64,000 nt of DNA from Escherichia coli (GTDB taxonomy: Bacteria > Pseudomonadota > Gammaproteobacteria > Enterobacterales > Enterobacteriaceae), in assembly GCF_024223415.1 (NCBI RefSeq), contig NZ_CP100500.1. One strand, given 5' to 3'. Positions within the stretch are counted from its first letter, which is position 1, and each line of letters begins with the position of its first letter. Under the pieces are notes generated by a model that searched no databases, was not told the origin of the DNA, and saw only the letters and a program-made list of their open reading frames with translations. Below, one piece after another: positions 1,361 to 55,782 of the stretch. The position numbers and the translations under genes are program-made.

Positions 1361-1434
1361 TTCACCACCTCTGAGTAGAGGCGCTATTCTACCACTGCTG
1401 GAGAGGAAGAAAATCTAGTGCTGAAAAAATGATA

Positions 1435-1578
1435 TCACCACGGGATAAACTGGTTAATGGCACAAATTCCGCTGAAAAATTGTACATCCTGATCGCACAT
1501 CATGTTGAATACCTGCGCCCAAAGCAGCAAGCAAGCCAACACCACGACAACCAGAACGACCCATCGAAACTTTTTCAC
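1435..1578 (-). CDS. mgrB: PhoQ-inhibitory small membrane protein MgrB (47 aa, GTG start)
   Basis: Manual translation gives [47 protein letters not shown]; not in ORF track because under 60 aa. Confidence 0.85.
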
Positions 1579-1736
1579 TCCAATCTCCGTTTCACCTACC
1601 TTATGTCATTAAACTAGCATGCGTTAGTTAAACAGCGCCTAACTATGTCGATATTCGTGCTTTTTCGGAATGAGTCGCTTGCTTCAGCGCATATTGCCGC
1701 TACGATTAAGCGAACATAAAAAGAGAAGAGGTTGTA

Positions 1737-1976
1737 ATGCGATTCATCATTCGCACAGTTATGCTGATAGCACTGGTATGGATAGGATTATTACTCAGCG
1801 GATATGGCGTTTTGATTGGAAGCAAAGAGAATGCCGCAGGATTAGGTTTGCAATGTACCTATCTGACTGCCAGAGGCACCAGCACGGTACAATACTTGCA
1901 CACTAAAAGTGGTTTTTTGGGGATAACAGATTGCCCGCTGTTACGCAAAAGCAATATCGTGGTCGATAATGGTTAA
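1737..1976 (+). CDS. yobH: small protein YobH
   Basis: 79-aa ORF with signal/TM segment; K-12 synteny. Confidence 0.8.
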   Translation: MRFIIRTVMLIALVWIGLLLSGYGVLIGSKENAAGLGLQCTYLTARGTSTVQYLHTKSGFLGITDCPLLRKSNIVVDNG

Positions 1977-2119
1977 GGGCAATAAATAACCAGATTCTCA
2001 CTCCTGAGTAAAATACTCTTATAGCAAGCGCGTTTAATATAACGCCACCTTCAACTTTATTTTTCTCATGCTAAATAAAGAACCTGTCTGTTTGATATTC
2101 CGACAGGTTCTTACTCTCA

Positions 2120-2911
2120 TCAGAACGGATAGTCGTGATAACCCATTTGGGCAGAAATTTTGCGCGCTGCGGTATGCAACATTGCGACATATTCCTGTAA
2201 ACGCTCTTCAGAGAAACGCAACGTCGGGAAGGAGATGCTCAAACCGGCAATGACCACGCCAAAGCGATCAAATACCGGTACCGCAATGCATCGCAGCCCT
2301 TCTTCCTGCTCTTCGTTATCTTCGCCATACCCCTGCTCGCGCACCTGGTCCAGAACGGGTAATAACGCTTCTGTACTGGTGATGGTCCGCTCGGTACTGC
2401 GTTTATACTCCACGCCCTCAAGAATTTGCTTCACTTCATCGCGATCGCGCCATGCCAGCAGTACCTTACCAATCGCGGTGCTGTACAGCGGATTACGACG
2501 CCCAATCCGTGAATACATGCGCAAATTGTACATAGAGTCAATTTTGTGAATGTAAACAATACTGTCTTCGTCCAGTGCGCCGAGGTGGATAGTTTCTTTG
2601 GTCAGGCGGGAGATCTCACGCATCTGGATATCTGCGCTACGAATTAAATCGACGTTTTGTAACGCGCGAGCGCCCAGTTCAAACAATTTCAGGGTCAGGG
2701 AATATTTCTCCGACTCCCCTTCCTGCGCCACATAACCTAAGGTTTTCATGGTCTGTAAAAAGCGATAAACGGTGCTTTTTGACATCATGACGCGCTGCGA
2801 CAGCTCGGTTATCCCTATTTCGCGCTCTTCACCCAGCGCCTGCAAAATGCCAAAAACTTTTAGCACGGAAGATACAGAATCAGGCTGTTTATCCAGATCT
2901 GCGTTAGCCAT
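2120..2911 (-). CDS. kdgR: IclR-family transcriptional repressor KdgR
   Basis: 263-aa ORF with N-terminal HTH and IclR effector domain; synteny. Confidence 0.92.
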   Translation of the reverse strand: MANADLDKQPDSVSSVLKVFGILQALGEEREIGITELSQRVMMSKSTVYRFLQTMKTLGYVAQEGESEKYSLTLKLFELGARALQNVDLIRSADIQMREISRLTKETIHLGALDEDSIVYIHKIDSMYNLRMYSRIGRRNPLYSTAIGKVLLAWRDRDEVKQILEGVEYKRSTERTITSTEALLPVLDQVREQGYGEDNEEQEEGLRCIAVPVFDRFGVVIAGLSISFPTLRFSEERLQEYVAMLHTAARKISAQMGYHDYPF

Positions 2912-3087
2912 TTATCACCTCATTGCGAGTGTTTTATAAAAATCAGAACTGTTTTTTATTATAATTTCGCACCAGGGTGGTCGCAATCCATCTTTTGCCG
3001 GTTAGTTACAATTCTGCGACATCCACCGTGAATATCAGTGCTAGAATCATACCCCTGTTGATTATTCACCAAAGATATAAAATTCCT

Positions 3088-4461
3088 ATGCCAAAAGTTC
3101 AGGCCGACGGCCTGCCATTGCCCCAGCGATACGGTGCGATATTAACCATTGTGATTGGTATTTCGATGGCTGTCCTTGACGGCGCAATCGCCAACGTCGC
3201 CCTGCCAACAATCGCCACGGACCTTCATGCCACGCCAGCCAGTTCCATCTGGGTAGTGAACGCCTATCAAATCGCCATTGTCATCTCCCTGCTCTCGTTT
3301 TCGTTTCTGGGCGATATGTTTGGCTATCGACGTATTTATAAATGCGGTCTGGTCGTTTTTCTGTTGTCTTCACTGTTCTGCGCCCTTTCTGATTCGCTGC
3401 AAATGCTCACCCTTGCGCGTGTCATACAAGGTTTCGGCGGTGCAGCGTTGATGAGCGTTAATACCGCACTTATCCGCCTGATCTATCCACAACGTTTTCT
3501 GGGTAGAGGGATGGGCATAAACTCGTTTATTGTTGCCGTCTCTTCTGCTGCCGGGCCGACAATTGCTGCAGCAATCCTCTCCATCGCATCCTGGAAATGG
3601 TTATTTTTAATCAACGTACCGTTAGGTATTATCGCCCTGCTTCTGGCGATGCGTTTTCTGCCGCCCAATGGTTCTCGCGCCAGTAAACCCCGTTTCGACC
3701 TGCCCAGCGCCGTGATGAACGCGTTAACCTTCGGCCTGCTTATCACTGCGTTGAGTGGTTTCGCTCATGGGCAATCGCTGACGTTAATTGCTGCGGAACT
3801 GGTGGTAATGGTTGTTGTTGGTATTTTCTTTATTCGCCGCCAGCTTTCTCTTCCAGTACCGCTGCTACCGGTGGATTTACTGCGTATCCCGCTGTTTTCA
3901 CTTTCTATTTGCACATCTGTTTGCTCTATCTGCGCACAAATGCTGGCAATGGTTTCCCTGCCCTTTTACCTGCAAACCGTGCTCGGGCGTAGTGAAGTCG
4001 AAACAGGTTTACTTCTGACACCGTGGCCGTTAGCAACGATGGTGATGGCTCCGCTGGCAGGCTATTTGATTGAACGCGTACATGCAGGATTGCTGGGTGC
4101 TTTAGGATTATTCATCATGGCTGCGGGGCTTTTTTCCCTGGTTCTGCTGCCCGCGTCACCTGCGGATATCAATATTATCTGGCCGATGATCTTATGTGGC
4201 GCTGGATTTGGCTTGTTCCAGTCACCCAATAACCACACCATTATTACCTCCGCGCCTCGCGAACGTAGCGGTGGAGCCAGTGGCATGTTAGGAACGGCTC
4301 GTCTACTGGGTCAGAGTAGCGGCGCGGCGCTGGTGGCGCTGATGCTAAATCAGTTTGGAGATAATGGTACACACGTCTCGCTGATGGCTGCGGCTATTCT
4401 GGCAGTGATTGCTGCCTGTATCAGTGGGTTACGTATCACTCAGCCACGATCCAGGGCATAA
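3088..4461 (+). CDS. yebQ: MFS transporter YebQ
   Basis: Multi-TM MFS protein; start placed at internal Met (MPKVQADG...) to give the 457-aa K-12 length; the ORF track extends 37 codons upstream. Confidence 0.85.
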   Translation: MPKVQADGLPLPQRYGAILTIVIGISMAVLDGAIANVALPTIATDLHATPASSIWVVNAYQIAIVISLLSFSFLGDMFGYRRIYKCGLVVFLLSSLFCALSDSLQMLTLARVIQGFGGAALMSVNTALIRLIYPQRFLGRGMGINSFIVAVSSAAGPTIAAAILSIASWKWLFLINVPLGIIALLLAMRFLPPNGSRASKPRFDLPSAVMNALTFGLLITALSGFAHGQSLTLIAAELVVMVVVGIFFIRRQLSLPVPLLPVDLLRIPLFSLSICTSVCSICAQMLAMVSLPFYLQTVLGRSEVETGLLLTPWPLATMVMAPLAGYLIERVHAGLLGALGLFIMAAGLFSLVLLPASPADINIIWPMILCGAGFGLFQSPNNHTIITSAPRERSGGASGMLGTARLLGQSSGAALVALMLNQFGDNGTHVSLMAAAILAVIAACISGLRITQPRSRA

Positions 4462-4491
4462 AAAAAGCGCGTCGAGCAGGACGCGCTTTTT
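4461..4491. terminator. bidirectional intrinsic terminator between yebQ and htpX
   Basis: GCGCGTC-gagcag-GACGCGC stem-loop flanked by an A-run upstream and T-run downstream. Confidence 0.7.
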
Positions 4492-4506
4492 AGTATTTAC
4501 TTCATA

Positions 4507-5388
4507 TTACTTCAGGTATTCACCCGTACGCAGAGCTTCAATACGTTTATCCAGCGGCGGGTGAGTCATAAACAACTCACTGAGCGATTTCGACTTACCG
4601 TTAATGCAGAAAGCCATCATGCTGGTTGCTTCTTGCGGTTCATAGCTGGTTTTCAGGCGCTGCAGCGCGGCAATCATTTTCTCGCGACCAACCAGTTTTG
4701 CCGAACCGGCATCAGCATGGAATTCACGATGACGCGAGAACCACATGGTGATAATGCTCGCCAGAATACCAAACACCAGTTCCAGAACCGTTGCAACCGC
4801 AAAGTAGATCAGCGGGTTGCCGTTGCTCTCTTCACCTTCATCACGATTTCCGCCCATAAAACCCGCGGCAAGCTGCGCCAGAATACGGGAAATAAAGATA
4901 ACGAAGGTATTCACCACGCCCTGAATCAGCGTCATGGTGACCATATCGCCATTGGCGATGTGGCTGATTTCGTGAGCAATTACCGCCTCGGCTTCATCCG
5001 GGCTCATGTTCTGCAGCAAACCGGTGCTGACAGCAACCAGAGAGGCATCACGGCGCGCACCGGTTGCAAAAGCGTTGATGTCCGGCGCATGGTAGATAGC
5101 CACTTGCGGCATAGCGATCCCCGCCTGACGAGCCTGGGTTGCTACAGTATTGACCAGCCAACGTTCCCTTTCGTTACGCGGTTGCTCGATCACTTCCCCG
5201 CCAACAGATCGTAATGCCATCCATTTGGACATCAGAAGCGAAACGAAAGAACCACCAAAACCGAACAGCAAGGCCATGATCATCAGCCCCTGAACGCTGC
5301 TCGACTGTATCCCTGTCAGGCTCAGTACCAGCCCGAAAACGACCATTACGGCCAGGTTCGTTAGCAGGAAGAGCGCGATTCGCATCAT
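4507..5388 (-). CDS. htpX: membrane zinc metalloprotease HtpX
   Basis: 293-aa ORF with HEISH (HExxH) motif and TM segments. Confidence 0.95.
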
Positions 5389-5579
5389 AATTTTCTTTTT
5401 ACCTCAGTTTAACAAAACGCAATATGCGATACCCACATCGTATGGGTTACGCGACTATTTTCAAGTCTGGATAGTGCGTAAGTCACCAGAAAGACACAAC
5501 TTTACATTTTGTAGCATCTGATTTACGGCATCTTGCCGCTGTTAAAAAATCAGGCACAATTTCTTGTGCCTGATTGATA

Positions 5580-7628
5580 TTACTTGACGGGTGCGGGTTG
5601 TTCCGCGGGTCTGGCTTTTTCAAGCTTCGCCAGATCGAGTGCGATATTCACCGTCTCATCCAGATAAGGATCCGGCTCCTGGTAATCTTTCGGTAGATCA
5701 TCCAGTTTCTTCAACTCCGGTTTACCTTCGCGTTTAAAGCGTTCGTTCAAACGCGCCAGACGCGTCGCATCATCTTCATTATTCTCTTTCTCACGCACAG
5801 CGTAATTCAGAGAAACGATATTGCGCTTGTCCTTCATGGCGTTGAAGCGCGCGATATCCTTCATGATGTTCTGGAACTCAGGATCTTTCGCGATACGCGC
5901 ATTATGTTCCTTCAGCAGCTCCGGTTCAAAGGCCGTTAAATCGCCTGATTTCACATAGGTCGCGGCATCAATGCTATCCCACGGCAGCGCGTTATCTTCG
6001 AATTTCTCACCCGTTTCCGTTTCTTCATTACCCGTCGGCATGATGATGTCTGGCGTTACGCCTTTACGTTGCGTACTGCCGCCGTTAACGCGATAGAATT
6101 TCTGGATCGTGTACTGCACAGATCCCAGCGCTGGCCATTCAGGACGTAACATCTGATCGTAGATACGGTTCAATGAACGGTATTGCTGAACGGTGCCTTT
6201 ACCAAACGTCGGTTCACCCACAACCAGCGCACGACCGTAATCCTGCATTGCCGCGGCAAAAATTTCTGAAGCCGAAGCACTGAAACGGTCAACCAGTACC
6301 ACCAGCGGGCCTTTATAGAAGACCTGTCCGTCGGTATCGCTGTCTTCACGAACTTTACCGTTGTTATCGCGGACCTGAACAATAGGACCCGCAGGAATAA
6401 ACAGACCTGAGAGCGATACCGCTTCGGTCAACGCCCCACCGCCATTGCTACGCAGGTCGATGATCACACTGCTGACATTCTGTTTTTCCAGTTTCTGCAG
6501 TTGTACTTTGACATCGTCTGTCAAACCCACATAGAAGCCCGGAATATCCAGTACGCCGACTTTCTCTTTACCGACGGTCTTCACCGACATTTTAACCGCG
6601 CGGTCTTCGAGACGAATACGTTCACGGGTCAATGTTACAGTGCGGGTCTTGGTCCCTTTACCAGCAGGTAAAATTTCCAGACGAACTTTACTGCCCTTCG
6701 GCCCTTTAATTAAGGCAACCACATCATCAAGACGCCAGCCAATCACGTCAACCATCGGCTTGCCTGTTTGACCAACACCGACAATTTTGTCACCAACGCT
6801 GATAGCTTTACTCTTCGCTGCCGGACCACCTGCCACCATCGAATTGATAACGGTGTAGTCATCATCCATTTGCAGCACTGCGCCAATACCTTCCAGCGAC
6901 AAACTCATTTCAGTGTTGAACTGTTCGGTATTACGCGGGGAAAGATAGTTGGTATGCGGGTCGATTTCACGCGCAAACGCCGTCATTGCCAGCGAGAAAA
7001 CATCTTCGCTGTTGGTTTGCGCCAGACGACGAATGGCAAATTTGTAGCGGCGAGTCAGGGTTTCACGAATTTCTTTATCCGTTTTTCCTGCCAGCTTCAG
7101 GCTTAACTCGTCGAATTTGACTTTACTGTCCCACAGCGCGTTCAACTCAGCCTCGTTTTTCGGCCAGGGCGCTTTGCTGCGGTCAAGGTTATAAGTGTCG
7201 TTGCCGGTGAAATCCATCGGCTTTTCCAGTACCGACAAAGCGTACTGGTAACGTTCAAAACGACGCTTTTGCGCCAGATTGTAGAGATCGTAGAAAACGT
7301 CGAGTTTGCCTGAACGCAGTTCATCGCCTAACTCGGTTTTCTTTTTCGCGAACTGTTCAACATCGCTTGCCAACAGCACGTTGTGGCTGTAATCGAGCAG
7401 ATTCAGGTAGCGGTCAAAGATTTTGGCCGAAAATGCCTGATCGAGGTCAAACTGGCGATAATGAGAACGGGTGAAGCGCGACGTTACGCGCTCACTTACC
7501 GTCGCATGCTGCGTCTCTTCCTTTAATACCGGAATTTGATCAGCACGCGTGATATCTTCTACAGCGAAGGTCTGGCCTGCTATTGCAAGCAGGCCAGCTA
7601 ACGCGGTAAGCCTAAAAAACATGTTCAT
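5580..7628 (-). CDS. prc: tail-specific periplasmic protease Prc (Tsp)
   Basis: 682-aa product from Met MNMFFRLTALAGLLA (signal peptide), PDZ/S41 peptidase; the ORF track extends 16 codons upstream. Confidence 0.95.
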   Translation of the reverse strand: MNMFFRLTALAGLLAIAGQTFAVEDITRADQIPVLKEETQHATVSERVTSRFTRSHYRQFDLDQAFSAKIFDRYLNLLDYSHNVLLASDVEQFAKKKTELGDELRSGKLDVFYDLYNLAQKRRFERYQYALSVLEKPMDFTGNDTYNLDRSKAPWPKNEAELNALWDSKVKFDELSLKLAGKTDKEIRETLTRRYKFAIRRLAQTNSEDVFSLAMTAFAREIDPHTNYLSPRNTEQFNTEMSLSLEGIGAVLQMDDDYTVINSMVAGGPAAKSKAISVGDKIVGVGQTGKPMVDVIGWRLDDVVALIKGPKGSKVRLEILPAGKGTKTRTVTLTRERIRLEDRAVKMSVKTVGKEKVGVLDIPGFYVGLTDDVKVQLQKLEKQNVSSVIIDLRSNGGGALTEAVSLSGLFIPAGPIVQVRDNNGKVREDSDTDGQVFYKGPLVVLVDRFSASASEIFAAAMQDYGRALVVGEPTFGKGTVQQYRSLNRIYDQMLRPEWPALGSVQYTIQKFYRVNGGSTQRKGVTPDIIMPTGNEETETGEKFEDNALPWDSIDAATYVKSGDLTAFEPELLKEHNARIAKDPEFQNIMKDIARFNAMKDKRNIVSLNYAVREKENNEDDATRLARLNERFKREGKPELKKLDDLPKDYQEPDPYLDETVNIALDLAKLEKARPAEQPAPVK

Positions 7629-8442: not shown

Positions 8443-8940
8443 TTATCCTGCGACGCTCGCAAAGAATTTTTTGTAATCCGTCGTTGCAAGCACTTTTTCA
8501 AGCTGTGCCACAAGCTGACGTAAGCCTTGCTCGTCCTCGTCTGTAAAGCGACCGAAGACGGTACTATCGATGTCGAGAACACCAATAATCTGATTTTTCA
8601 CCACCAGCGGCAGAACAATTTCAGAATTACTCGCCGCATCACAGGCAATATGCCCGTCAAACGCGTGAACATCCTCGATACGCTGCACTTGATTGCGGGC
8701 AACCGCAGTGCCGCACACGCCGCGCCCGACGGGTATCCGGACACAGGCAATTTTGCCCTGAAATGGTCCGAGCACCAGTGTATCGTCCTCAAGCAAATAA
8801 AAACCTGCCCAGTTTACGTCAGTGAGACGCTCATATAACAACGCACTGGTGTTCGCAAGCGTTGCCAGAAAACTGGTTTCTCCCGCCATCAGCGCGTTAA
8901 AGTCGCGATTTAAATCCGCGTAAAATTCTGTTTTGTTCAT
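8443..8940 (-). CDS. msrC: free methionine-(R)-sulfoxide reductase MsrC (GAF domain)
   Basis: 165-aa product from Met MNKTEFYADL; GAF-domain protein; synteny. Confidence 0.9.
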   Translation of the reverse strand: MNKTEFYADLNRDFNALMAGETSFLATLANTSALLYERLTDVNWAGFYLLEDDTLVLGPFQGKIACVRIPVGRGVCGTAVARNQVQRIEDVHAFDGHIACDAASNSEIVLPLVVKNQIIGVLDIDSTVFGRFTDEDEQGLRQLVAQLEKVLATTDYKKFFASVAG

Positions 8941-45705: not shown

Positions 45706-46833
45706 TCAGAACTCAAAATTCACACCAGCATTCCACGATGCGGATGACCCACCTGCAGCAACTGCAACTTTTCCTGCCACATTCTCTGTGAAACGGTAGC
45801 CCACGCCCACCGCAATGGCCTGCTCATCACGGTAACCACCAACGGCTGCTGTCGCGTTAAATTTTCCAACACTGTATGGCTGGAAAAGACCGGCCAGTGC
45901 CGCGCTCTGGGCTGCACTCTCCCTTAACTCCTTCCGGTTCTCTTTAATCTGCTCCTGCATATTATTCATTCTCTCTGTCGCCATCTTCTGCCAGGCTTCC
46001 GTCAAATCCAGACGATGACTGTTATTCCTTATCGCTGCTGTATTTGAGGCTATTGCTGCATCCGTCTGCGCCCTGTTCTTCACAAGCACATCGCTGAGAT
46101 GTTCTGCCTGGCTTTTCACCTCGTTACGGACAGTACGCACACTGCTGTCTGTATATGTACGCGTCTCGTCCAGAACATCCGACTTCACCGCATCCGTGTA
46201 TTCCTGCGCAGAAGCCCTGGCAGCTGTAATATTACCGTTAAGTCTGTTTTCTGCCGATTCCACTCGACTCTTAGCATCAGCAACAGCATCACGGTAGACA
46301 GCTCCTATCTCACCGCGCAGGGCATCCCCCGACTCCCGTACAGCATCTGCAATGGCGTTGTCCATCTGTCCTTTTGTGGCCGCATCACTATCCTTAACAC
46401 CATCTGAAACATTTATAATCCGGCGGGTTTCCGGTGCACCATCAACTGAAAATCCATATCCTGAAGGACCGGCCCCTACAGAAAGTACATTGCTTTCTCC
46501 ATTCACCTGAGAGCCATACCCCAGAGCGACACTGTTGTCTGCATTAAAAACAGCTGTATTATTTCCCACAGCCATGGATTTATCCGCATCCCAAATTATT
46601 GCATCGGAACCAACAGCAAAGTTTTTTCCAGTAACACTACCATCACTGTTAAAATTTCCATTTCTGTCAACCACAGTTGCACTTTCAAGTGAATGAGTGC
46701 CATTATCAATCCAGATAATACCCGTCGATGACTCAGTAAGTGTTTTATGAGCCAAAGCCTGAGATGAGAGCAGCAGGGCCACACTCACTGCCAGCGCGCT
46801 TTTCTTTAAAAAAGCATCACGTCTTTTAAGCAT
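45706..46833 (-). CDS. trimeric autotransporter adhesin, Eib-like (E. coli immunoglobulin-binding protein family) candidate
   Basis: 375-aa product from MLKRRDAFLKKSALAVSVALLLSSQALA (signal peptide; SD AGGAG 9 nt upstream); coiled-coil stalk; C-terminal YadA-like anchor ...WNAGVNFEF; Eib genes are known prophage cargo; the ORF track extends 18 codons upstream. Confidence 0.7.
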   Translation of the reverse strand: MLKRRDAFLKKSALAVSVALLLSSQALAHKTLTESSTGIIWIDNGTHSLESATVVDRNGNFNSDGSVTGKNFAVGSDAIIWDADKSMAVGNNTAVFNADNSVALGYGSQVNGESNVLSVGAGPSGYGFSVDGAPETRRIINVSDGVKDSDAATKGQMDNAIADAVRESGDALRGEIGAVYRDAVADAKSRVESAENRLNGNITAARASAQEYTDAVKSDVLDETRTYTDSSVRTVRNEVKSQAEHLSDVLVKNRAQTDAAIASNTAAIRNNSHRLDLTEAWQKMATERMNNMQEQIKENRKELRESAAQSAALAGLFQPYSVGKFNATAAVGGYRDEQAIAVGVGYRFTENVAGKVAVAAGGSSASWNAGVNFEF

Positions 46834-47181
46834 TCTGTTATTCTCCTGTATTATTACTTCACCAGCCAGAACGGTAGTGCGGAGCAAAAATACAGTGATA
46901 AGAATCCTCTTTTATTAATTTAATAATATCAGGAATATTATTGTGTATAATATGCGCCCTCAATTTAAGCAGCAGAAAAGCAATGACGCGAAAATCATTA
47001 AAATACATAAAGATAAAACATCATAACTATAATTATAATAAGCGCGCTTATTTTAGCATCTGAACATTTAAAGTACTGCTATCACAAAACAATAAAAATC
47101 CTGGGTAATATCTCTGATGATTGAATGAGAAATTCACGATGTCTGGTGAGAATTCTGTTCAAAACGAGGAATGCAGACGTA

Positions 47182-48086: not shown

Positions 48087-49892
48087 TCACCGTATTCTCT
48101 GAAACAGGCCCCAAATCGTCCCAATGATATTATTCACTGTCATGTTAGTTGTGCATAACATCCATGTACCAAGCATAGGATTGCCAAATAAAAAGCGGAT
48201 ATCTGTAAGTTTATCCGATGACGACGACACAATAACGGCCTGTCTGATACGATACCCGGGTATTTCACGGGTATTTGTTACCTCATGATTTCGTTCTATG
48301 ATCCCCAGAACATAAGACCCCACGGAATAAACACTTCCGACGCTCGCTGGCTGCCCCGGCTGTCCCTGTGGTCCTGCCGGGCCGCGTTCACCTGTATACC
48401 CTCTTGGCCCCTGAGGACCTGCCGGGCCGCGTTCACCTGTATCCCCCTTTAGTCCCTGTGGACCTGCCGGACCGCGTTCACCTGTATCGCCCTTTGGTCC
48501 CTGTGGACCACGCTCCCCCTGGGCTCCCAGCTCTTTCCATTCAGACCAGGGGCCATTACCGGTAAAATTACCAGTAACAGTTCTTACGAACTTTCGTGGT
48601 GGGTTCCAGGTTGTATATTCATGCTGGCAATATCCCCATGCACCAACTCTTACCTGAAGATAACCCGCTCTCTGAATCGGATAATTATTTTCTCGTGTAG
48701 CCCCACTGTCTGATGGCTGATAATAATCACCCTGATCGGTCACTCGTCCCAGTCGGTTCAGATCACCATTCAGCAGTTGTCCACGGGCTGACTCTCCTCT
48801 TGGTCCCTGAGGACCTGCCGGACCGCGTGCTCCTGTTTCACCTTTTGCTCCCTGTGGACCTGTCGGACCGCGTTCACCTGTTTCACCTTTTGGTCCCTGT
48901 GGTCCTGCCGGGCCGCGTTCACCTGTTTCACCCTTTGCTCCCTGTGGACCTTCCGGGCCACGTTCACCTGTATCCCCCTTTGGTCCCTGAGGACCTGCCG
49001 GGCCACGTTCACCTGTATCGCCCTTTGATCCCTGTGGACCTGCCGGGCCGCGTTCACCTGTATCCCCCTTTGGTCCCTGTGGACCTCCCGGATCTCCTTT
49101 ATCCCCCTTAGGGCCTTTTTCTCCTCGCTCACCCTTTTCTCCCTTCAGACCCTGAGGGCCTTCCGGACCACGTGCACCTGTTTCGCCCTTTGCTCCCTGT
49201 GGACCTGCCGGGCCGCGTTCACCTGTTTCGCCCTTTGCTCCCTGTGGACCTGCCGGGCCGCGTGCACCTGTTTCACCCTTTGGTCCCTGTGGACCTGCCG
49301 GGCCGCGTTCACCTGTATCGCCCTTTAGTCCCTGTGGACCTGCCGGACCGCGTTCACCTGTTTCACCTTTTGGTCCCTGTGGTCCTGCCGGGCCACGTGC
49401 TCCTGTTTCACCTTTTGGCCCCTGTGGCCCGGTAATGCCTCTTTCACCACGAGCGCCGGTATCCCCTTTCTCTCCTCGTGGTCCCCGGGCAGATGCTGCT
49501 CGTTTCCGGGCTTCCTCCGCCTCAGATGCCGCGGACTCTGCTCTGTGCAGTATGGACTGCACCACAGCCTCCAGCTCTGACAACGCCTTCGGATAATAAG
49601 GAGCATCTTCCAGCTCCATCAGAAATTTATTCAGTGTTCCCGGTGAAGAATCCTCCCTGACCACGATATCTCCCACATACGAAGGACGGTAACCTTCTGT
49701 ATTGAGTGTCACCCTGTATATTCCTGGCTCCACATCCATACTGTAACTCCCCGTCTCTTCCGGCATGCCATAAGCCACTGTCGTGGCGATGACTGTCTCG
49801 CTGGTTCTCTTCGCTTTCAGCTCAATAATGCATCCCGGTACCGGTTTTCCGGTTCCGTCCCTCAGCACGCCTGAAATTTTTACAGCCGCCAT
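48087..49892 (-). CDS. stf: side tail fibre protein (Stf-like) with collagen-like G-X-Y repeats
   Basis: 601-aa ORF; N-terminus [18 protein letters not shown]... resembles lambda Stf N-domain; two long blocks of GPxGxKGxTGxRG repeats; distinct C-terminal domain. Confidence 0.8.
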
Positions 49893-50894: not shown

Positions 50895-51154
50895 CAGATC
50901 CCCCTTATCATGACCAGCACGGGTCTTAACCAGCTTGTGTTGGCATAGTGCACTGTCCAGCCGGATACACTGGCACTGGTATGACTTCCCTGACCGTTAA
51001 TCAGAATGGCCGGTGAACAGACTTCCAGACGCCAGCCCTGCAAAGGAGTATAAGAACGCTGCCCCGTCCCTTCAGTGATCACATCCAGCACCCCTGTTGG
51101 GTTTATTTCATGTGTCACAAGGCGCCCTTTGCGCCATACCCGGACTCCGAACAT
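50894..51154 (-). CDS. hypothetical small protein coupled to J
   Basis: 86-aa ORF; start overlaps J stop (TAATG). Confidence 0.5.
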   Translation of the reverse strand: MFGVRVWRKGRLVTHEINPTGVLDVITEGTGQRSYTPLQGWRLEVCSPAILINGQGSHTSASVSGWTVHYANTSWLRPVLVMIRGI

Positions 51155-54100
51155 TACAGTCTCCCCAGTCGTACTCTTAACACATTGTTATCGTCATATA
51201 CGTCGATTCGCTCGCCATTGAAAAACAGGCGGCCTGCGCCGGGCCTTCCTGAGTTAATTTCAAGGCTGCCGTTTCTTGATAAACGCCACCCCGGACTACC
51301 GGAATGAAAATTATCTGACCGGATATCTCCCGTCACTCTGGCAAAATCCACGGTCAGTTTTTTCATGAAAACATCATTCATGAACAGCTGATCACCCTGA
51401 GCCACAAACAAAGGTGTTGTATTGCCATTTTCCGGGTTAATCATCGCAATACGATCTGCCTGCATCAGGATCTGACTCTGAATTCCGTCAGACGTATTTT
51501 CGATTCCGGCACCAATACCTGCAATATAGAGACGTCCATCCCGTGTCTGCTGCAGCTTCACAGCCCACATGCTGTTCAGGTTCCGGCGCGTGTCCTCCTG
51601 AACTTTCTGTATCTGCTCAATGCTGGCATTCCAGGATCCCAGTTTTTTATCCGTGCTCTGTGTGATCTGACTTCCCTTATCATCAACATACTGTCTGATC
51701 TGCGCTATCTGTCGGCTGTTCTCCTCCGTGCTCCTGCTTACTGTCTGCCGGATTTCGCTTCCCATCCTGTCAACTTTTCTGTCAACTTCCGCAATGGCCA
51801 TTGACTGTTCAGCGCTCTTTTTCGCCACAACAGTACTTATTTGCGCACTTTTATCATCAACATACTGCCTGACCTGCGCTATCTGTCGGCTGTTCTCCTC
51901 CGTGCTCCTGCTCACTGTCTGCCGGATTTCACTGCTCACGCTGTCAACTTTCCTGTCGACTTTCGCAATGGCCAGCGACTGTTCACCGCTCTTTTTCGCC
52001 ACCAGTTCCGTTATGCTGTTTTCAGACGCCGTGATTTTTTTCGTCACCTCTGCGATATCACGCTCCGCACGCTGCCTCACATCTTTCTCCAGCTGCGTCA
52101 TTTCGCGGTTAATCGCATTCTCCAGTTGCTCAACTTCAGTGCGCCGTGCAGAGGCATCAATGCGTTCATTGATCTCCCGTCCCAGATGCGTTTTATTTAT
52201 CGCCCCCCTGAAAAAATTAAGGTAACCGGCAGGATCATTACTCGCCCGACCGACTGCCTCCACGAATGCCGATTTACCGACAGTGTTAACACTGCGGATA
52301 TAAAAGTAATAATCATGGCCAGGTTTAATATTCTGGCCGGAGACAAGCCACTGACTTCCGGTACCAAGATAACGGGCTGTGGTTTCAACCTGCCTGATAT
52401 CGGTAATCCGCGTTTCCGAGAACCAGAACTCAAACTGTACCGTCGGATCGTAAACCGCAAGATGCGGCGTGGCGGTTATCTGAAAATAGCCCGGCGTCAG
52501 CTCAATCCGCGACGGCGCTGCCGGTGCGGCAATCCGGAACGATACCGACGCCGGGTCTCCCTGCTGCCCCCGGGCATTTACTGCCCGGACTGTCAGCCTG
52601 TAGTTCCCCGGCGCCAGCTGCCTGAAGCGGTATGTGGTTTCCGTCGTCCGGGCCGTGCTGACCAGCCGCTCACTGCCATCATCCGCGGCCACGGTCAGGC
52701 GAAGCAGGAAGCTCACGCCCTTCACCACCTTCGGCGTGTCCCAGCGCGCCAGCACCTGATATTCCCCGCTGTCTGCGGTGACTTCTGCGGTCAGGTGCTG
52801 CACCGCTGGCGGCGTGACACCATTCACCGTTCCGCTCTGGTCGCCGTCAAAGTGCGCCCCGTTATCCACGATGGCCTCTTTTTCCGGTACATGCTGCACG
52901 GCAGTGATGGCATACGTGCCGTCGTCGTTCTCACGGATACTCACGCAGCGGAACAGGCGCTGGCGCAGCGTCGGCAGCTTCAGCCCCCACACGCTGTACT
53001 CGGCAACGCCGTCAGGAACCCGGCTCACTTTTACCTTCACGCCGTCGGTGACGGACTGAACCTCCACGCTGACCGGATTGCCACTTCCGTCAACCAGACT
53101 TATCAGCGTGGTACCGGAGGATGGCAGCGTGATTTCACGGTCGAGCGTCAGCGTCCGGGTCTGGCTGTTCACCGCCAGCACACGACCACCGGTGCTGATA
53201 CCGGCATAGTCATCATCACAGATTTCAATGACATCGCCCGGTACATGGCGAAGCCCTTCAGCACCCACGCTGAAATCCACGGTCTGCGTCTCCAGCAGTT
53301 CTGTTTTAATCAGCCACAGCCCGGCGCGGTGTGCCTGCCCCCGGCTGGTACAGCCAAAGGCATCCATCTTCGTGACGTTACGACCGTAACGGGCAATGGC
53401 CTGCGTGTCCTCCACAAGCTCTGTCGCCGTCTCCTGGCCGTTATCCGGGTCACTCCAGTTCACCTCAACGGCATTATGGCGGTCCTTCAGGGCGCTGAAG
53501 CTGTAGCGGAACGGCGCGCCATCATCCGGCATCACCACATTACTGCGGTTATAGGTCCACACCTTATCCGACGGTCGGTCCTGCACGAACGTCAGCGTCT
53601 GCCCGTTCCATACCGGCATACAGCGCATCGCCGAGCAGAAATCACTGAGCACATCCCACGCCTTACGCTGCCTGGTCAGCCAGGCATTACAGGTGATGCG
53701 CGGCTCCGTGCCACCAGAGCCGTCCGGCACCGACTGGTCGCAGTACTGGCCGATGACATACAGCGCCCATTTGTCCACATCCGCTGCGCCAACACGTTTC
53801 CCCATGCCGTAGCGCGGGTGGGTCAGCATATCCCACAGACACCAGGCCGGGTTATCGCTGTATGCCGGTTTAAACGTTCCGTCCCAGATACCGCTGTATT
53901 GCCGCGTCTGCGGGTTATAGTTCGACGGCACCTGCAGAATGCGCCCGCGAAGATGATAATTACGGCTCACCTGCTGGCTGCCGAACTGCTCCGAATCCAC
54001 CTGCACACCGACCAGTGCCGTGTTCGGGTAGCACTGTTTCACATCGATGATTTCGGTGTATGACGACCAGAGCGTTTTGTTCTGCAGCTGGTCTGTGGTG

Positions 54101-54663
54101 CTGTCCGGCGTCATCCTGCGCATCCGGATACTGAACGGGCGCGGCGGCAGGTTACCCACCACCACCGGGGCCAGATACTGCGAGGTGGTTTTGCCCTTAA
54201 TGGTGATGTCTTTTTCCGTTAACCAGCGACCGTTACGCTGTATCTGAACCAGCAGGCGGACTTCCGACGGATTCCGGTCCCCCTTTGAGGTGGTTTCCAC
54301 CAGTGCCTGCACACCGAAGGTCAGGCGCAGACGGTCGATGTTTGCCGACGTGATGGTCCGGGTAATCGGCGTGTCGTACTTCACTTCCGTACCCAGCACC
54401 GTCTCGGAGCCGGAGGATTCAAATCCCTCCGGCGGCGTCTGCTCCTGCTCACCGGCCCGGAATACCACCGTGACGCCGGATATATTGGTATTCCCCTCAC
54501 TGTCCAGCACCGGCGTACCGTTCAGCAGCACGCTTTTTAATCCATCCACCGGTCCTTGTATCGGCCCTTCGCTGATGACATCGATCACACTCAGCAACTG
54601 CGTGGACTTCAGGTTGTCCTTCGCTTCGCGCGGGGTATGCCCCTTACTGCTGCCTTTACCCAT
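51154..54663 (-). CDS. J: tail tip / host specificity protein J (central fibre), variant C-terminus
   Basis: 1169-aa ORF; N-terminal ~900 aa match lambda gpJ as I recall it ([24 protein letters not shown]...); C-terminal ~270 aa differ and include two 58-aa tandem repeats. Confidence 0.92.
51678..52025. repeat. 174-bp tandem duplication inside J
   Basis: Two adjacent ~174-bp copies (starting 51678 and 51852), ~90% identical, encoding [20 protein letters not shown]... Confidence 0.8.
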
Positions 54664-54679
54664 TCCTCACACTCCATAA

Positions 54680-54706
54680 ACAACAAAGCCGCCCAAAAGG
54701 CGGCTC
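54680..54706 (-). terminator. intrinsic terminator-like hairpin downstream of moron lipoprotein gene
   Basis: Minus strand: AGCCGCC-ttttg-GGCGGCT followed by TTGTTGTTTAT, just upstream of the J ribosome binding site. Confidence 0.5.
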
Positions 54707-54729
54707 ATGAGTTACGGCAGGATTAACTA

Positions 54730-55068
54730 TTATTTACATGCATTAACACTATCAGCAAAAATTTTTGGCGTTAATGCTGGTACGCGTTCATAAAGAGTAA
54801 AACTACTGCCATTTCCTGCTTTTTTGATATCAAGCACAACATCATACCCACCCATAGCCTGTGGAACTAAAAGGCTTACCCCATTCTCAATAGGAATGGA
54901 TGTTATAGGTGTTCCATTACCAGCCCATTGTCTGGATATGCAGCCTGACAATTCATCAATATTTTTTAATGAATTACCTTCCATTACAGGCTTGCCGGAT
55001 TTTACGTAATCCAAAGATTTACATCCTGTTAAGGCAATAATCGTGCAGAATAAAATCGTTTTGTTCAT
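54730..55068 (-). CDS. AT-rich moron lipoprotein inserted between tail genes I and J
   Basis: 112-aa product from MNKTILFCTIIALTGC (lipobox LTGC); markedly AT-rich versus flanking genes; own promoter-like AT-rich upstream region and downstream hairpin. Confidence 0.65.
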   Translation of the reverse strand: MNKTILFCTIIALTGCKSLDYVKSGKPVMEGNSLKNIDELSGCISRQWAGNGTPITSIPIENGVSLLVPQAMGGYDVVLDIKKAGNGSSFTLYERVPALTPKIFADSVNACK

Positions 55069-55140
55069 ATAGCTAACCAACAGAATAATTATCAGTGTTC
55101 GATATAAATATTAAATCAGTTAGAACATGAGTAAATAATA

Positions 55141-55782
55141 TTACCGCCCAATTACCACAACCTGACCACCATCCCCTTCATCTGCCGTGCTAATCTCCTG
55201 AGATGCCACACGTGACCCCACGCGCATTTCACCGTACAGAACAGGCAGGACATTGCCCTGGGCAACCATGTTATCCAATGAGGAAAAATAGGTATTTTGC
55301 TTACCGTTATCAGTGGCTGACACTTTAGGCGTTTTGGCTTTCGGTGCCAGCATCTGCGCAACACCGCCTAAAACCATACCTGCCCCAAGAGAGAACATGA
55401 GATTACTTGCAACAATACTAAGCCCCGGCATCCAGATTGCCGTAGCAATTAGCGCCGCACCCAGCACTGCCTGAAAAATACCGCCACTTTTGGCACCCGC
55501 CAGACGCGGTACGATGTGGATCACGGCACCATTTGCCAGCGGCTCATTAAGACGGGCAGATAATTCGTTTTCGCCTGCATCACGCCCGGCAATGCGCACC
55601 TGATACCAGCCGTCATTCAGTTTCTGACGAAACGCCGGGAGCTGTGTGGCCAGTGCCCGGATGGCTTCAGCCCCCGTTTTCACACGAAGGTCGATGCGGC
55701 GGCCAAATCGTTGCAAATCCCCGTAAAGGCAGATGCGTGCCATGCCCGGTGACGCCTGAGGGAGTGTGTGCGTCGCTGCCAT
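55141..55782 (-). CDS. I: tail assembly protein I
   Basis: 213-aa ORF similar to lambda gpI; follows K with overlap. Confidence 0.88.
   Translation of the reverse strand: MAATHTLPQASPGMARICLYGDLQRFGRRIDLRVKTGAEAIRALATQLPAFRQKLNDGWYQVRIAGRDAGENELSARLNEPLANGAVIHIVPRLAGAKSGGIFQAVLGAALIATAIWMPGLSIVASNLMFSLGAGMVLGGVAQMLAPKAKTPKVSATDNGKQNTYFSSLDNMVAQGNVLPVLYGEMRVGSRVASQEISTADEGDGGQVVVIGR

Follow-up and report, generated by a model that had tools for sequence, protein, structure and literature searches.

The DNA between tail genes I and J of a lambda-like prophage, located in the 64,000-nucleotide stretch of Escherichia coli sequence analyzed here (the window), is probably an accessory cassette of the "moron" type, which encodes a small exported lipoprotein of the PHROG 914 family. 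Gene I, the upstream neighbor (213 aa; 55141..55782, minus strand; TAA stop at 55143..55141), was taken from the list of ORFs and carries the annotation "tail assembly protein" in those E. coli genomes that share the region; downstream lies the host-specificity/tail-tip gene J (1169 aa; 51154..54663, minus strand). From the stop of I (55141) to the start of J (54663), 477 bp intervene, compared with 60 bp in mEp460 and phage 1W, which are lambda-like but without the insert. When the region was compared with 50,697 phage records using megablast, 108 records of lambda-like phages matched both flanks (93–95% identity, as also observed for the gene I flank against I genes of lambda-like phages), and all 108 were without the middle part. 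Alignment with the insert-less phages placed the extra DNA between the stop codon of I and the hairpin preceding J, that is, ~417 bp of low-GC DNA was gained there, upstream of a hairpin that the I-J junction already possessed. The GC content of the lipoprotein gene is 0.37 and that of the 72-nt spacer upstream of it 0.24, compared with 0.57 and 0.59 for the 1.5-kb flanks. Both the presence of ∼480 bp of extra DNA between I and J and its marked AT richness had been claimed in a preliminary description of this stretch, and both were borne out. An Rfam search of the I-J region yielded nothing meaningful.

The sole credible ORF of the 477-bp interval occupies positions 54730..55068 on the minus strand and comprises 112 codons plus the stop; its product begins MNKTILFCTIIALTGC. 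The entire protein matched PHROG 914 (residues 1–112 on profile positions 1–118 of 118; E = 5.7e-33, 114.9 bits), a family annotated as "unknown function". Nine distinct alleles, drawn from E. coli genomes and IMG/VR contigs, differed at 13 sites, nine of which were third codon positions; 10 sites were synonymous and three non-synonymous. The full-length PHROG match and the preponderance of synonymous sites (10 versus three) support the minus-strand coding frame, and the lipoprotein ORF is clearly a real gene under purifying selection. Two ORFs on the plus strand of the insert (61 and 43 aa) were dismissed because the conservation and the synonymous pattern fit the minus-strand frame.

The first 15 residues of the protein constitute a signal peptide, with a short basic n-region (MNK) and a hydrophobic stretch (TILFCTIIA), leading into the lipobox L13-T-G-C16, which conforms to the pattern [LVI][ASTVI][GAS]C. 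The 112-aa lipoprotein with the lipobox LTGC recognized in the preliminary description was thereby confirmed (ORF 55068..54730, Cys16, canonical lipoprotein signal). The residue at position +2 after Cys16 is Lys, and Asp at +2 was absent in every family member read; according to the sequence rule, Lys instead of Asp at this position predicts Lol-dependent sorting to the outer membrane. AlphaFold2 modeled the protein confidently (pLDDT 85, pTM 0.76) as an alpha+beta fold, and its mature form comprises ∼97 aa. Across 35 diverse family members, Cys16, Cys43, and Cys111 were invariant and P27, K35, and G63 nearly so; the lipobox, the other two cysteines, and the latter three residues were kept down to 20–30% identity. 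The invariance of Cys43 and Cys111 suggests a periplasmic disulfide. Less firmly than its export, it may be proposed that the mature protein is tethered to the outer membrane at its inner leaflet, faces the periplasm, and probably contains a Cys43-Cys111 disulfide. As the signal peptide indicates that the protein is exported, it should not be a tail component, and a structural role in the virion is ruled out by the export signal together with the dispensability of the gene (see below).

The lipoprotein gene is followed by a terminator-like, GC-rich hairpin with an interrupted T tract (54674..54706, minus strand), the stem of which spans 9 bp, six of them GC pairs (54706..54686). Behind the stem follows TGTTGTTTAT, and the ribosome-binding site of J begins directly after the T tract; the 66-nt spacer before J folds with −22.1 kcal/mol (z = −2.7 versus shuffles). 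The insert-less phages possess a homologous hairpin (AACCGCCTSCGGGCGGTTTTGTCGTTTATGGAG there versus AGCCGCCTTTTGGGCGGCTTTGTTGTTTATGGAG in the window), which is accompanied by the same interrupted T tract. Its stem reads AACCGCC..GGCGGTT in mEp460 and 1W versus AGCCGCC..GGCGGCT in the window, which is a compensatory pair change. Because it is found in phages without the insert, the hairpin belongs to, or is shared with, the I-J junction and is not borne by the insert. Thus, the hairpin and the T tract described previously do exist, but they do not constitute a terminator of the cassette's own.

Downstream of all phage-borne relatives of the lipoprotein gene, a GC hairpin, a T run, and the GGAG of the next gene were found, an arrangement that, as judged from sequence, would fit the "gene plus terminator" shape of morons. 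These hairpins and the shared one at I-J suggest that the structures serve as exchange boundaries. In the GenBank record of HK97, a "putative terminator" is annotated directly before H, I, and J. Whichever slot the lipoprotein gene occupies, a similar module of hairpin, T run, and GGAG is found before I, J, or H; such modules may be conserved elements of the late operon or boundaries of moron exchange.

Upstream of the lipoprotein ATG lies the AT-rich spacer of 72 nt (55069..55140, minus strand; GC 0.24), which contains a weak Shine-Dalgarno sequence. The best sigma-70-like site in it is TTTACT (55135..55130) separated by 16 nt from TAATAT (55113..55108), with eight of 12 matches and 9.8 bits, as scored with a position-weight matrix based on approximate hexamer frequencies from the literature. 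This site ranks among the top 24 of 128,000 window positions but was equaled by 20% of the shuffles of the 72-nt spacer, and a consensus scan of the coding strand found no sigma-70-like site reaching the threshold of 9/12. The −35/−10-like hexamers reported previously are present (8/12), but hexamers of this quality are to be expected from the AT-rich composition. The sequences upstream of the gene in related clades are unrelated to each other and not conserved. Many copies located between K and I begin 36 nt after K behind a strong AAGGAG, and some overlap the stop codon of the preceding gene (locus L113, where that gene is K-like, and locus L111); many relatives are plain late-operon genes without room for a promoter. 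Among the family members examined, none surpasses the window allele in promoter-like score, and none has a weaker Shine-Dalgarno sequence; this allele may, accordingly, have acquired a promoter. On the grounds of lambda biology, the position of the gene between I and J on the late transcript firmly implies that Q-antiterminated transcription must cross both the gene and the hairpin. By analogy with lambda, the lipoprotein is very likely made late in lytic growth, whether or not it is also produced in the lysogen.

The preliminary description had recognized no homologue of the lipoprotein, a view that profile searches overturned: besides the full-length match to PHROG 914, an exhaustive profile search retrieved 236 clusters of 50%-identity representatives across Proteobacteria, nearly all of which, among the matches listed, are ∼100–125 aa long. 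The family consists of uncharacterized lipoproteins from gamma-, beta-, and alpha-proteobacteria, including soil and other environmental Proteobacteria and their phages. No Pfam family matched the window protein even at E ≤ 10; when 35 family members were searched, only the lipid-attachment site LPAM_1 was detected, in some of them. NCBIfam gave only a sub-threshold match to VirB7, in the signal peptide, and a sequence-profile search of the PDB likewise gave matches to the signal peptide only. None of the PADLOC anti-phage defense models matched at E ≤ 1, no catalytic or inhibitor family was recognizable for the window protein, and a literature search on PHROG 914 and phage-related tail lipoproteins found no papers on the family. 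One member is encoded outside any prophage, on the chromosome of Shimwellia blattae (locus L007, 6001-6339; 38% identity), where the GC content is host-like (0.62). This copy is located between a gene of the YidB family and ecotin, a context kept in several assemblies, and may point to a cellular origin of the family or to a cellular role.

Where the relatives sit was addressed with 80 IMG/VR viral contigs, surveyed with an alignment of eight family sequences. All 80 copies are inside the tail operon and in the orientation of the tail genes, 25 of them at I-J, 49 at K-I, and six at T-H. Every one of the 25 I-J copies in this survey is 98–100% identical to the window allele. More distant relatives (26–34% identity) are encoded between K and I in the coliphages Fraca, LMessi, HK140, and mEpX2, in Serratia phage OS31 and Pseudomonas phage phiAH14a, and in metagenomic contigs. 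A clade 50–51% identical to the window protein is found between the G/T chaperone gene and the tape-measure gene of HK97-like Enterobacter prophages. The same intervals are those in which "moron" products are annotated in the GenBank records of HK97 (gp15 at T-H; gp22 and gp23 at I-J) and HK022 (gp20 at K-I; gp22 and gp23 at I-J). The occupation of all three classical moron slots (GT-H, K-I, and I-J) by one family indicates a mobile cassette or cargo, and the family behaves as mobile cargo that was placed independently in each of them. A functional link to gene I, as the constant adjacency might imply, was ruled out by the GT-H relatives (50% identity) and by the chromosomal copy.

The K-I slot also holds other genes. 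In one clade, a second small ORF (90 aa, KDPDSAKF...GYVNAKNSYGAYTG) precedes the lipoprotein gene; this two-gene unit was found in phage Fraca (L002, 5725-5994) and in about 25–30 IMG/VR loci (L072-L099), in which K and the lipoprotein gene are ∼390 nt apart. Some prophages (L010, L011, and L012; ∼1400-6000) carry an island of 4–5 kb upstream of the lipoprotein gene in this slot, with genes for Arc-like repressors, antirepressor-like proteins of the Bro-N/KilA-N/ANT type, and a SocA_Panacea protein. The size of these islands indicates that the slot can hold large accessory or defense cargo.

Morons have been defined in previous work (PMC3594210), and the sense of Juhala et al. 2000 and Cumby et al. 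2012 was followed here. The insert adds DNA between two genes that adjoin each other in related phages, and its composition is unlike that of its surroundings. A terminator-like hairpin, as expected for the factor-independent terminator downstream of a moron, is present, shared rather than brought in. The occupancy of three slots supports the label "moron" better than anything seen in the window alone. Hence, of the textbook moron announced in the preliminary description, the extra AT-rich DNA in a slot annotated for morons in HK97 and HK022 and the three-slot family stand, whereas the cassette's promoter is a putative one and its terminator is shared with insert-less phages; the label is nevertheless largely right.

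In complete E. coli genomes, the insert was found at 348 places in 336 of 5426 genomes (∼6%), and the gene is annotated as "hypothetical protein" throughout these carriers. The 5′ end of a lambda-type J was found at 8699 places in 4336 complete E. coli genomes, so that the insert occupies ∼4% of lambda-type I-J junctions (348/8699), and ∼96% are without it. The lipoprotein gene is dispensable for lambda-like phages and is a minority accessory. A conserved component of the virion, which the preliminary description had named as an outcome speaking against its proposal, is not what was found, as ∼96% of the junctions do without the gene and its product carries an export signal.

Nearly identical versions of the window allele (98–100% DNA identity) are linked to J proteins of 1132, 1159, and 1169 aa, the last ∼350 residues of which are of three types, divergent or unrelated. 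Moreover, the lipoprotein gene never adjoins the 3′ end of J. The different C-termini of J, and the distance of the gene from the 3′ end, make a blocker matched to a single receptor unlikely. The N-terminal ∼800 aa of the window J are 90–100% identical to those of J from E. coli 042, S88, and CB9615.

Several observations were made on the tail-fiber end of the prophage. The last ∼350 aa of the window J (51154-52300) bear no relationship to the C-termini of J in 042, S88, O104:H4, and CB9615; from this sequence comparison, the receptor-binding module of J appears to have been swapped. Its 3′ part contains a tandem duplication of 174 bp (58 aa; 51677-52002) in a segment resembling a coiled coil. 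An ORF at the position of a tail fiber (48087-49892, minus strand; 601 aa) contains long collagen-like Gly-X-Y repeats and matched models of the collagen-like adhesins Lcl and Scl with E = 1e-56 to 2e-60, below the cut-offs of these models. Near the end of the prophage, a 393-aa ORF (45706-46887, minus strand) matched trimeric autotransporter adhesins of the YadA type (E = 3e-23, below the curated cut-off) and could represent a further accessory gene, located downstream of the tail fibers.

The cassette resembles the morons of HK97 and HK022 in using the same slots of the late tail operon (GT-H, K-I, and I-J), in consisting of extra DNA with deviant composition, and in the terminator-like hairpin directly before the next tail gene. 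The superinfection-exclusion protein gp15 of HK97, which blocks DNA entry (PMC3594210), is encoded in a slot that is also used by the PHROG 914 family, but it is a small inner-membrane protein, whereas the window product is a predicted lipoprotein. HK97 gp22 and HK022 gp20 were ruled out as relatives (hhalign probability < 1%) and are unrelated cargo.

Among phage lipoproteins of known effect, those closest as functional precedents are small ones from siphophages that act by blocking entry. Cor is a superinfection-exclusion lipoprotein of siphophages (PMC3594210), the mEpimmI lipoproteins Lpp010 and Lpp021 exclude LamB- and OmpA-dependent phages (PMC11893012), and Llp of T5 acts on FhuA and is reported to reside in the inner leaflet of the outer membrane (bioRxiv 10.64898/2026.03.26.714494). 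Like the window product, Cor (of phi80, N15, and HK022), Llp, Lpp010, and Lpp021 are small phage lipoproteins that possess a lipobox and whose genes belong to the tail or structural module. Unlike the window lipoprotein with its mature length of ∼97 aa and its alpha+beta fold, however, their mature forms comprise only ∼55–65 aa. Their genes adjoin the 3′ end of J or of the gene for the receptor-binding protein, and they match its receptor; genes of the window family are located upstream of J, at K-I, or at GT-H, and one allele is combined with different J C-termini. Membership of Lpp010, Lpp021, or Cor in the same family was rejected, as hhalign probabilities were 11–20% and the matches covered only the signal peptide and, at most, a few residues beyond; Llp of T5 (8a60_B) matched the family profile over residues 1–19 only (E = 0.38).

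Bor/Iss of lambda is likewise a small lipoprotein encoded by a prophage moron; it is similar in size and is located in the outer membrane, as predicted in the present case, but the window protein did not match the Pfam family Lambda_Bor. The gene for Bor is found outside the tail operon, close to the lysis genes. At the level of the fold, the Flpp3/DUF3568 lipoprotein of Francisella (PDB 9nlt) is comparable, but at 6–12% identity and with no Pfam or PDB sequence match; DUF302, KA1, the N-terminal domain of BamC, and other small domains of the helix-grip or TBP-like kind are subject to the same limit of 6–12% identity, the fold being a common one.

Taken as an accessory cassette, the locus could operate as follows. 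Q-antiterminated late transcription would read the lipoprotein gene through from I toward J; in the repressed prophage, the hairpin would stop any transcript originating from the AT-rich spacer before it reaches J. From the inner leaflet of the outer membrane, the lipoprotein could modify the envelope such that incoming phages are excluded, or such that progeny is not wasted on debris. Because the function is not tied to one receptor-binding domain of J, a generic entry step or a component of the host envelope would be a likelier target than a single receptor. By analogy with the phage lipoproteins mentioned above and with the HK97 moron gp15, superinfection exclusion, interference with entry, or modification of the envelope is our best guess at the function, a tentative one; the remainder of the probability falls to a function that is unknown or to neutrality.

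A more specific proposal, which we consider conceivable but unlikely, is that PHROG 914 lipoproteins constitute a new, widespread class of entry blockers independent of the phage receptor. Anchored to the outer membrane on its periplasmic side, these lipoproteins would hinder a conserved step in the penetration by tail tips of the lambda or HK97 type, for example, the exit of the tape-measure or tip protein, or the crossing of the peptidoglycan. If true, such a mode of action would account both for the association of the gene with the genes of tail-tip assembly (GT-H, K-I, and I-J), as opposed to the receptor-binding end of J, and for the use of one allele by prophages whose J proteins differ in specificity.

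Exclusion or envelope modification has to be weighed against effects that do not concern competition between phages at all. Bor and Lom of lambda are precedents for outer-membrane proteins expressed by a prophage (PMC3594210), and a lysogenic-conversion factor resembling Bor/Iss would, from the repressed prophage, alter serum or complement resistance, tolerance of envelope stress, or adhesion. The window allele, with a promoter-like site better and a Shine-Dalgarno sequence weaker than in any other family member examined, would be in line with such a role, and so would the presence of the insert in the pathogens EAEC 042, O104:H4, ExPEC S88, APEC O1:K1:H7, and O55:H7 CB9615. However, the insert is also carried by commensal, animal, and environmental E. 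coli; the family extends through soil and environmental Proteobacteria and their phages, where it is usually embedded as a late gene; and homology to Bor is absent, given that no Pfam match was obtained even at E ≤ 10. Conversion is, thus, regarded as quite improbable.

We assign an equally low probability to an accessory protein of the lytic cycle which, made late, would act in the periplasm during or after lysis without excluding other phages, for example, by inhibiting a periplasmic enzyme or protease of the host or by modulating the breakdown of peptidoglycan or outer membrane. It would agree with the invariable co-orientation of the gene inside late tail operons and with the close connection of several copies to K, which contains an NlpC/P60 peptidase domain: these copies are either coupled to K in translation or begin a short distance behind it. 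The Shimwellia homologue adjoins the gene for ecotin, a periplasmic protease inhibitor, but this adjacency is a conserved chromosomal context of one species only. The gene is, moreover, dispensable, given that none of the close isolated phages contains it and that ∼96% of the lambda-type I-J junctions are without it, and the protein belongs to no recognizable catalytic or inhibitor family. Finally, a selfish or neutral hitch-hiker that benefits neither phage nor host and spreads by recombination at conserved intergenic hairpins of the tail operon would account for the movement among three slots, the low prevalence, and the hairpins of the same type flanking the junctions, also in insert-less phages, but it is very improbable in view of the clear purifying selection (10 synonymous versus three non-synonymous sites), the retention of the lipobox, both further cysteines, P27, K35, and G63 down to 20–30% identity, and the persistence of the family across Proteobacteria.

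While the architecture of a moron at I-J is textbook, its cargo belongs to a conserved and structured family for which neither Pfam nor NCBIfam has a model. The family is represented in siphophage tail operons throughout Proteobacteria, and ∼6% of the complete E. coli genomes carry a member. The hairpin shared at the slot boundaries hints at how morons are exchanged. Should a phage-blocking activity be confirmed, the few phage lipoproteins with control over entry would be joined by a new class, and this would matter for predicting the resistance conferred by prophages in phage therapy.
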